A stretch of DNA of 64,000 nt. Origin: a virus. Taxonomy: Duplodnaviria > Heunggongvirae > Uroviricota > Caudoviricetes. The notes under the pieces are model-generated. The model was not told where the DNA came from. It did not search any database and saw nothing but the letters and a program-made list of their open reading frames with translations. The stretch lies in the IMG/VR virus record IMGVR_UViG_2832442593_000001, positions 88,020-152,019 of that record; one strand, written 5' to 3'. Positions 23,314 through 23,360 of this stretch are shown here, piece by piece; position 1 is the first letter of the stretch, and each line of letters opens with the position of its first letter. The position numbers were made by a program, and so were the translations under genes.

Positions 23314-23360
23314 TTCGCGTCCCAAAATCGCGATTTTTGTATAGTAGATAGTGTAAGGGA
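23314..23360 (+). promoter_or_regulatory. Repeated promoter/operator element: TTCGCGTCCC-AAAATCGCGATTTT (14-bp palindrome)-TGTATAGTAGATAGTGTAAGGG
   Basis: One of five copies; immediately upstream of the phage sigma-factor gene. Confidence 0.55.

Follow-up and report, generated by a model that had tools for sequence, protein, structure and literature searches.

The window analyzed in this work is the whole stretch of 64,000 nucleotides from position 88,020 to position 152,019 of the IMG/VR virus record IMGVR_UViG_2832442593_000001, a member of the Caudoviricetes. Within it, an intergenic element lies between an open reading frame with an integrase-type fold, which is followed by an intrinsic terminator, and the gene of a two-domain sigma-70-family factor; the same element recurs at other places in the window (Table 1). 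Beyond the left end of the window lie YonJ_N, an HU-like gene, YonG and the terminase, and beyond its right end lies a large serine recombinase, after which host genes follow in one NCBI genome (GCA_003480615.1; our locus L135). The phage also encodes PolIII-alpha, ribonucleotide reductase, dUTPase, a serine integrase, a YopP-like plus YopR-like pair and, to the left of the window, a 981-aa protein that is locally similar to SPbeta YonO and whose homologues in other phages bear the annotation RNA-dependent RNA polymerase. Late genes run leftward and early genes rightward, and this layout together with the gene set is the plan of the Bacillus phage SPbeta (compared with NC_001884); in particular, YonJ_N, YonG, the HU-like gene, the terminase, the YonO-like protein, the serine recombinase, PolIII-alpha and dUTPase make up an SPbeta-type genome context. 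Judged from these sequences, the phage is an SPbeta-like prophage of a human-gut Oscillospiraceae-like bacterium, the GuaA protein of the host being at most 82% identical to Agathobaculum, Pseudoflavonifractor, Lawsonibacter and Oscillospiraceae proteins. A recoding of TAG in this phage was considered and rejected, as read-through of TAG does not lengthen open reading frames in general. One conserved case was observed in which such read-through does lengthen the frame.

Table 1 Copies of the repeated element and associated features, in positions of the window
Feature	Position	Strand	Parts and remarks	Unit behind it or neighbouring genes
Copy 1	1471..1519	-	CGTCC 1515-1511, TATAGT 1493-1488	Leftward: RepA_N-like ORF, 22-bp iterons, Bro/ANT, YonO-like RNA polymerase
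Near-consensus sigma-A-type promoter	2839..2867	+	TTGACA-17-TATACT with TGn; in-phage reference for a host-type promoter	
Sigma-A-type promoter match	4949..4977	+	TTGACC-17-TAAAAT with TGn	Paralogous small ORFs 5008 and 5260
Copy 2 (variant)	9016..9064	+	CGTCC 9020, TATAGT 9042	Small genes 9124-18623, about 9 kb
Copy 3 (variant)	18649..18697	+	Spacer without dyad	repA_N, integrase-like gene, mrpR-like gene
Sigma-A-type promoter of the mrpR-like gene	22310..22339	+	TTGTTA-18-TATAAT, TGTGn in extended -10 register	mrpR-like gene
MrpR/SroF(YopR)-like integrase-fold protein	22373..23233	+	Candidate master repressor	Directly upstream of copy 4
Intrinsic terminator	23250..23275	+		Between mrpR-like gene and copy 4
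Copy 4 (originally reported)	23314..23362	+	CGTCC 23318, palindrome 23324-23337, TATAGT 23340	Sigma gene, four tRNAs including a CTA suppressor, genes up to 34872
Two-domain sigma-70-family factor	23471..23986	+	Region 2 and region 4; candidate reader of CGTCC	
Copy 5	34898..34946	+	Palindrome AAAAATCGATTTTT 34908-34921	tRNA and tRNA-like RNA cluster, TROVE/rsr-like gene
Intrinsic terminator	46407..46430	+		Directly upstream of copy 6
Copy 6	46483..46531	+	Palindrome 46493-46506	Replication module: Sak, exonuclease, DnaB, primase, PolIII-alpha, Thy1, NrdD

The core of the element, CGTCC-N17-TATAGTA (29 nt, with fixed spacing), occurs six times in the window against 0.01 times expected from dinucleotide-preserving shuffles. 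Its starts are at 9020, 18653, 23318, 34902 and 46487 on the plus strand, and one further match covers 1487-1515 on the minus strand. A sequence-only reading of this DNA had listed five copies, all of which were found within 1-2 nt of the positions given, but it had overlooked the minus-strand copy. In a scan with a weight matrix derived from all six, the copies themselves score 49-71 bits; nothing else scored above 18 bits in ~84 kb, that is, the window plus ~10 kb to its left (L136-L138) and ~10 kb to its right (L133-L135). Each of the six copies is intergenic, in a window of which ~19% is intergenic according to crude gene calls, and is co-oriented with the next gene or RNA, which begins 30-210 nt downstream of the CGTCC-17 bp-TATAGT segment. 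CGTCC and TATAGT are 17 bp apart in every one of the six copies and in every orthologue, and the -35 box that had been placed at TTCGCG, 20 bp from TATAGT, must be replaced by CGTCC, which is the box actually conserved at the -35 position.

The cassette as a whole is ~50 bp long and was found before every early or middle transcription unit seen. Long runs of A or T precede copies 1, 4, 5 and 6 and resemble the stretch before the promoter at 2839, and no known RNA family was detected with Rfam over the elements or their leaders. Reading the element on the reverse strand was rejected because all the genes downstream lie on its own strand. Three of the copies are separated by 11,584/11,585 bp; this equal 11.58-kb spacing was also rejected as meaningful and is a coincidence, as the corresponding interval measures 9,553-10,284 bp in relatives.

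The copies head early, middle and maintenance units; genes for structure and lysis lie outside the window on the other strand. As had been read from the sequence, copies precede the sigma gene, the tRNA/rsr region, repA_N and two further units; the unit behind the copy at 46487, formerly given just as the gene at 46699, was identified as the replication module. Copies 4 and 6 lie directly behind strong terminators, and the stem of the one at 23250-23275 shows compensatory changes among relatives.

The conservation of the element was assessed in loci fetched through their proteins and not through the motif, which makes the sample unbiased, and both CGTCC and TATAGT are invariant in all orthologues obtained in this way. 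In the copy upstream of the sigma gene, substitutions are confined to the central 7 nt of the spacer. About 30 near-identical contigs from human-gut metagenomes have the same gene order between copies and carry the orthologous copies at the same places. In the one more distant relative, L117 (79% DNA identity over 9 kb, 60% identity in the sigma protein), both repA_N and the sigma gene are preceded by copies that are near-unchanged from about -20 to about +20, and the motif is kept together with the recognition segments of sigma in region 2 and region 4.2. Word-based searches for relatives of the sigma factor returned only sequences of at least 96% identity, and an exhaustive HMMER search returned one at 61%, which is absent from IMG/VR, followed by generic sigmas at ~30%; the loci in metagenomes are all 96-99% identical. 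Among the sigma relatives searched, none had a different sigma/box pair. The phage clade is absent from species-representative genomes, and when 25 kb were compared by megablast with GenBank phages and with PLSDB plasmids, there were matches to tRNAs only or none. The 176-kb phage MT835469, whose YonO-like protein is 46% identical, was tried as an outgroup and gave no sigma match, no mrpR-like match and no repeated cassette; a recurrent TTTGTAGAA in its sequence proved to be Phe-Val-Glu codons.

These data bear on a reading in which the copies would not be promoters but would either serve tyrosine-recombinase-like proteins as recombination sites or be left over from a small mobile element. Genes of two integrase-fold proteins do lie nearby, at 19993 and 22373, and the spacer of the element has a central dyad, as recombinase core sites have. 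Nevertheless, gene order and orthologous copy positions do not change across the ~30 contigs, the copies are always co-oriented with the genes downstream, and neither terminal repeats nor target duplications were seen. Furthermore, outside the clade the 14-base pattern CGCGTCC-N17-TATAGTA has only chance matches, in unrelated sequences without the flanks. Given the fixed orthologous positions, the lack of rearrangements between copies and the lack of flanked copies outside the clade, we reject this reading as highly improbable.

The spacer between the boxes differs between copies. The perfect 14-bp palindrome AAAATCGCGATTTT, which had been taken as a conserved feature of the element, is indeed present in the copies at 23324 and 46493, but in these two only. 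The copy at 34902 carries a different perfect 14-mer (AAAAATCGATTTTT), the spacers of the copies at 9020 and 1515 (minus strand) read CAAATC-N5-GATTTG and CAAAAA-N5-TTTTTG, respectively, each with 6-bp arms and a 5-nt centre, and the copy at 18653 has no dyad, its spacer being unrelated to the other five. What five of the six copies share is a CAAAw-N7-wTTTG dyad, absent only at the promoter of the repA_N/mrpR-like operon, whose centre is fixed midway between the CGTCC and TATAGT boxes. Among the orthologues upstream of the sigma gene, 15 of 24 have uncompensated changes in the palindrome centre, whereas the outer arms CAAAA...TTTTG are kept in all of them. The element is a repeated intergenic promoter-type element, probably with a built-in operator: the promoter-type part of the original promoter/operator proposal is supported and the operator part is probable, although the perfection of the palindrome is not kept. 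From this pattern we infer that the two boxes are the parts recognized by the polymerase and that the spacer is a putative operator. As copy 3 lacks the dyad and heads the maintenance operon, from repA_N to the mrpR-like gene, it may escape repression.

Repeated promoter elements of this kind are known from SPbeta itself. The SPbeta repeated element (SPBRE) is bound by the master repressor MrpR (YopR), a protein with an inactive tyrosine-recombinase fold, at ten SPbeta promoter regions (PMC10516654). MrpR and its phi3T orthologue SroF bind a long asymmetric box as monomers, and SroF recognizes 24 of the box's 26 bp (bioRxiv 10.1101/2025.11.27.690993). As extracted from NC_001884, SPBRE is aTAGACAAATACAAAtAATATGTATATAATaaa, composed of a -35 TAGACA, a 17-nt spacer and a -10 TATAAT, with about 10-12 copies. 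Its box (aTAGACAAATACAAAtAATATGTATATAAT) does not match the sequence of our element, with which it has only TGTATA in common. The positions do correspond: copy 1 is equivalent to the site at yonP/yonO, copy 3 to that of the yopM to yopR operon and copy 6 to that of yorE and the replication genes, while the unit of copy 4 holds a 3D-domain gene like yorM, and, in all, four of the six copies stand at positions equivalent to SPBRE sites.

In both systems, one element is found at many intergenic promoter regions of a prophage larger than 100 kb, as a cassette of ~30-50 bp that extends from -35 to -10 of many early operons, and here it spans their predicted core promoter; copies stand at the divergent yonO-type operon, the replication module and the repressor operon; and the phage encodes a repressor-like protein of integrase fold (in our case a candidate of remote homology), a serine integrase, a YonO-like polymerase, PolIII-alpha and ribonucleotide reductase. 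They differ in the -35 box, CGTCC here and TAGACA in SPBRE, in a spacer that is dyad-symmetric here and asymmetric in SPBRE, in the number of copies (six against about ten), in the host, which is gut Oscillospiraceae-like and not Bacillus, and in the presence here of a sigma gene, repA_N genes with iterons, tRNAs and an rsr-like gene. On the grounds of the common layout, the four equivalent positions and the candidate integrase-fold repressor, we somewhat favor the view that the element would be, in function, the gut counterpart of SPBRE. The kind of element is known, as SPBRE-type early promoters and, more broadly, as uniform phage promoter classes; what is new is the sequence, the non-sigma-A -35 box, the dyad in the spacer and the adjacent phage sigma gene.

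The candidate integrase-fold repressor is the protein encoded by ORF 22373-23233, which scores 32.2 bits with the Pfam family MrpR_N_CB (gathering cut-off 27, which its three homologues pass too), and which matches an "integrase" PHROG family. Its best four fold matches in the PDB (Foldseek) were to YopR, MrpR and SroF, with E-values of only 8e-3 to 7e-2 from a poor AlphaFold model (pLDDT 55), and Cre came next. BLASTP against YopR was not significant, and no match was found among PDB sequences or, by tblastn, among GenBank phages. The homology of this protein to MrpR is, accordingly, remote. A second integrase-fold gene lies nearby, at 19993. The mrpR-like gene has a host-type promoter of its own, conserved in L117, which is just what a lysogeny repressor needs. 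By analogy with SPBRE and MrpR (PMC10516654), the MrpR-like protein would be no weaker a candidate for the repressor than the RHH proteins or Bro-N, which had been suggested earlier; set against an RHH protein, it is as likely to be the repressor.

The symmetry of the spacer is a point in favor of a different repressor, as a classical dimeric protein would suit a dyad better than a monomer of the SroF/MrpR type. Such a repressor, for instance the paralogues 5008/5260, might bind the CAAAw-N7-wTTTG dyad filling the 17-bp spacer, in which case the MrpR-like protein would have another role; this concerns the identity of the repressor only and is compatible with either of the polymerase models discussed below. 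The dyad is found in five of the six copies with its centre always midway between the boxes, natural variants spare its arms, and SroF reads asymmetric boxes as a monomer (bioRxiv 10.1101/2025.11.27.690993). In addition, ORF 5260 has weak Arc/RHH-like and repressor PHROG matches (E 0.003-0.006), and a sigma-A-type promoter precedes both ORFs at 4949. On the other hand, the RHH assignment is weak, with no Pfam match, the arms are plain A/T tracts that may reflect a needed spacer shape, and the precedent of the SPbeta family favors an integrase-fold repressor (PMC10516654). All in all we consider a dimeric repressor conceivable, though less likely than not.

With respect to the polymerase, the observation that the -35 region does not fit sigma-A was borne out. 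GCGTCC, at the -35 position, matches TTGACA at two of six positions, and the TG that abuts the -10 hexamer is out of the TGn register, so that the element offers neither a TTGACA-like -35 box at 16-18 bp nor a TGn in register. The -10 box TATAGT, in turn, matches TATAAT at five of six positions, with the A at position 2 and the final T among them. The sigma-A-type matches at 2839, 4949 and 22310 differ from the element in having TTGnnA together with TGn in the correct register, and the coexistence of these good matches with the non-sigma-A -35 box and the displaced TG of the six elements sets the latter apart as a separate class.

The phage sigma factor is a natural candidate to read this class. 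Pfam recognizes regions 2 and 4_2 in it, NCBIfam places it no more precisely than in the superfamily model, and its nearest counterpart in a cultured phage is about 24% identical and so uninformative. A bipartite motif with a fixed spacer and a putatively cognate sigma gene (23471) behind one of its copies is the arrangement expected of an alternative sigma factor, and we see an even chance that this sigma, on the host core polymerase, reads the element; it is favored because CGTCC is unfit for sigma-A while three good sigma-A-type matches exist in the same phage. The ECF consensus, with AAC in the -35 box and CGT in the -10 box, was not found in the element, where these are CGTCC and TATAGT, and an ECF reading with CGTC as the -10 box was rejected on inspection, as no consistently spaced AAC occurs upstream.

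Phage sigmas with private promoter classes are known, such as gp28 and gp34 of SPO1 and gp36 of phiEco32. They have in common with the present case a small phage protein of the sigma-70 family and a uniform promoter class with a non-host -35 box. However, they switch transcription to middle or late genes and are made from host-type early promoters, whereas here the element fronts the sigma gene itself as well as maintenance and replication genes, and its -10 box is housekeeping-like. Autoregulated ECF sigma operons and SigN of the B. subtilis plasmid pBS32 offer another parallel, as the promoter in front of the sigma gene is of the type that its own product may read, which would create positive feedback, and pBS32 resembles our phage further in carrying RepA_N-type replication genes. 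ECF operons differ from it in their consensus; no anti-sigma gene was identified next to the phage sigma gene.

It is less probable, but still conceivable, that the host housekeeping holoenzyme reads the same promoter/operator, with the near-consensus -10 box and the A/T-rich upstream stretches providing strength. CGTCC would then be the site of a phage activator or a part of the repressor box, and the phage sigma would serve other promoters, feeding, for example, late genes or the YonO-like polymerase. The agreement of TATAGT with TATAAT and the A- or T-runs upstream of copies 1, 4, 5 and 6, like those of the 2839 promoter, are consistent with this, and the element precedes not only lytic genes but also repA_N, which the lysogen requires. 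The use of TATAAT-like -10 boxes is rare among ECF-like sigmas, and a housekeeping-like TATAGT would be unusual for an ECF-like two-domain sigma. Likewise, the equivalent SPBRE promoters of SPbeta are of the sigma-A type (TAGACA-17-TATAAT) and no sigma gene is annotated in NC_001884, which also counts against the phage sigma, as does the failure to find a relative with a different sigma/box pair. The housekeeping holoenzyme, however, has to accommodate a -35 box that is uniformly non-canonical and invariant and a TG out of the TGn register, in a phage whose sigma-A-type matches keep TTGnnA and the TGn register, and no activator candidate was found.

A third possible reader is the YonO-like protein encoded by the phage, a single-chain RNA polymerase for which the elements would be the promoters. 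The promoter used by YonO is unknown, which leaves room for this possibility, but SPbeta YonO transcribes only the late structural/lysis operon, from one start site (PMC5467207). The elements head early, replication and maintenance units, including that of the YonO-like protein itself, and no element was present in the ~7 kb of late-gene region examined, so we give this reading a very small chance.

Taken together, these results lead us to a model in which the six copies would head six non-structural units as their early/middle promoter cassette. The invariant CGTCC at the -35 position and TGTATAGTA at the -10 position, always 17 bp apart, would be recognized by the polymerase, and the A-tract/T-tract spacer with its CAAAw-N7-wTTTG dyad would act as the operator by which, in the lysogen, a phage repressor silences five of the six units. 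Under this model the repressor would most likely be the MrpR/SroF-like protein, and copy 3, which heads the maintenance operon and has the same -35 and -10 boxes but an unrelated spacer, would escape repression. A basal amount of sigma could come from read-through of the terminator behind the mrpR-like gene, which would be driven by sigma-A; this could supply the first sigma molecules and thus remove the bootstrapping objection. Once repression is lifted, the sigma gene's own element would establish positive feedback. As a whole, we judge an early/middle promoter cassette of an SPbeta-like prophage to be a somewhat better than even explanation of the element.

A further-reaching version of this model, which we advance tentatively and hold to be somewhat doubtful, is that the elements constitute a private class of promoters that no form of polymerase reads but the host core enzyme with the phage two-domain sigma. 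In CGTCC the class would have a -35 box of new specificity next to a housekeeping-like -10 box, and the entire non-structural programme, that is, replication, the tRNAs with the suppressor tRNA, the rsr/non-coding RNA operon and the gene of the YonO-like polymerase, would run on an orthogonal sigma/promoter pair that is primed by read-through, locked by an integrase-fold or dyad-binding protein and self-amplified on release.

The element described here would extend the SPbeta regulatory plan, in which each early operon begins with one repeated promoter/operator and an integrase-fold protein is the master repressor, from Bacillus to uncultured prophages of human-gut Clostridia, and it provides a six-site regulon map that is directly testable in an isolate whose genome is available (GCA_003480615.1). 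Should CGTCC be read by the phage sigma, the two would constitute a compact orthogonal sigma/promoter system for Clostridia, and the phage would be an example of how a temperate phage insulates its early programme from the sigma factor of its host.

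The RepA_N-like ORF of the leftward unit begins with an ATG at 1437, preceded by a strong ribosome-binding site, and codon 11, ahead of the RepA_N domain, is an in-frame TAG. Amino-acid changes notwithstanding, both the TAG and the open frame on either side of it are retained in all 14 related sequences examined. TAG is rarely used as a stop in this phage (2 of 78), and the sigma operon contains a suppressor tRNA. These sequence features suggest that the RepA_N-like ORF may be subject to programmed amber read-through, whereby its protein would be linked to whether the sigma/tRNA operon is expressed.

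The tandem 22-bp repeats and the repeat set within repA_N have AAATCAAAC in common, and each set resembles an iteron-type origin. The spacer arms of the promoter/operator cassette's 9020 copy contain the AAATC core as well. As for the 15-bp repeats, a unit of 15 nt corresponds to five residues and the gene containing them matches, by DNA similarity, a pentapeptide-repeat gene in the more distant relative L117, which explains their presence.

Feature coordinates in the window
Feature	Position	Strand	Remarks
Six tandem 22-bp repeats (CGTCCTTCCAAATCAAAC...)	769-921		immediately downstream of RepA_N-like ORF
RepA_N-like ORF behind copy 1	1057-1437	minus	in-frame TAG at 1407-1405
Near-consensus sigma-A-type promoter	2839-2867		within 1520-3470
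Second repeat set	19055-19268		within repA_N gene
Purine-rich box AAAGGAAGAA(T/C)GAGTAT, two occurrences	23385-23433		sigma gene leader
Suppressor tRNA	24570-24663		sigma operon; anticodon CTA
13 tandem 15-bp repeats	30493-30775		inside gene 30438-31106
Atypical/over-long tRNA-model matches	35144-35259, 35907-36032, 37991-38059, 38166-38252		Rfam tRNA model
TROVE/rsr-like gene	36196-37749		flanked by the four matches
Purine-rich box, further occurrence	46681-46700		behind copy 6
PolIII-alpha gene	53118-57215		intein and HNH signatures
Split nrdD gene	59255-62554
NRDD part	59255-60997
230-aa ORF, family unknown	61117-61809		between the two nrdD parts
NRDD/Gly_radical part	62048-62554

The stretch 1520-3470 (~2 kb) holds no gene in the collection's annotation of the related contigs L136-L138, and none was called with confidence by a crude ORF caller. 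Its promoter leads into ~600 nt that are rich in G+C and include direct repeats (~3017-3090). The stretch may belong to the immunity region, either as a long leader or as a non-coding RNA. One of these contigs, L136 (ENA ERZ28617208 scaffold_106), has a differing prophage arrangement. It shares with the window the immunity region, copy 1 of the cassette and the leftward unit, and near window coordinate 6000 its immunity region directly adjoins a serine recombinase and host genes; therefore, the integration module has been shuffled within this phage group.

The Rfam tRNA-model matches flanking the rsr-like gene are over-long (116-126 nt) or atypical, and ARAGORN makes no tRNA call at any of the four positions. 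These sequences may represent either intron-containing tRNAs or Y-RNA-like (YrlA-type) RNAs that include a tRNA-like module. Within the replication module, PolIII-alpha has 1365 aa in the window versus 1097 aa in the related contig L134 (2291-5584), which indicates that the insert is a mobile intein present in some strains and missing from others. The split nrdD is reminiscent of SPbeta, whose reductase genes are interrupted by introns.

The AAAGGAAGAAT core of the purine-rich box in the sigma leader is kept in relatives, L117 included. In this leader the box opens a 4-codon mini-ORF, and the first gene behind copy 6 has it as its ribosome-binding site and start. The best family-specific NCBIfam match of the sigma protein itself (23471-23986) is SigY, far below the cut-off. 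Stable SPbeta maintenance needs host SigY, according to work cited in a review (PMC8270828), and lysogeny in phages of this group may involve an ECF-type sigma, although we regard this as only a lead.
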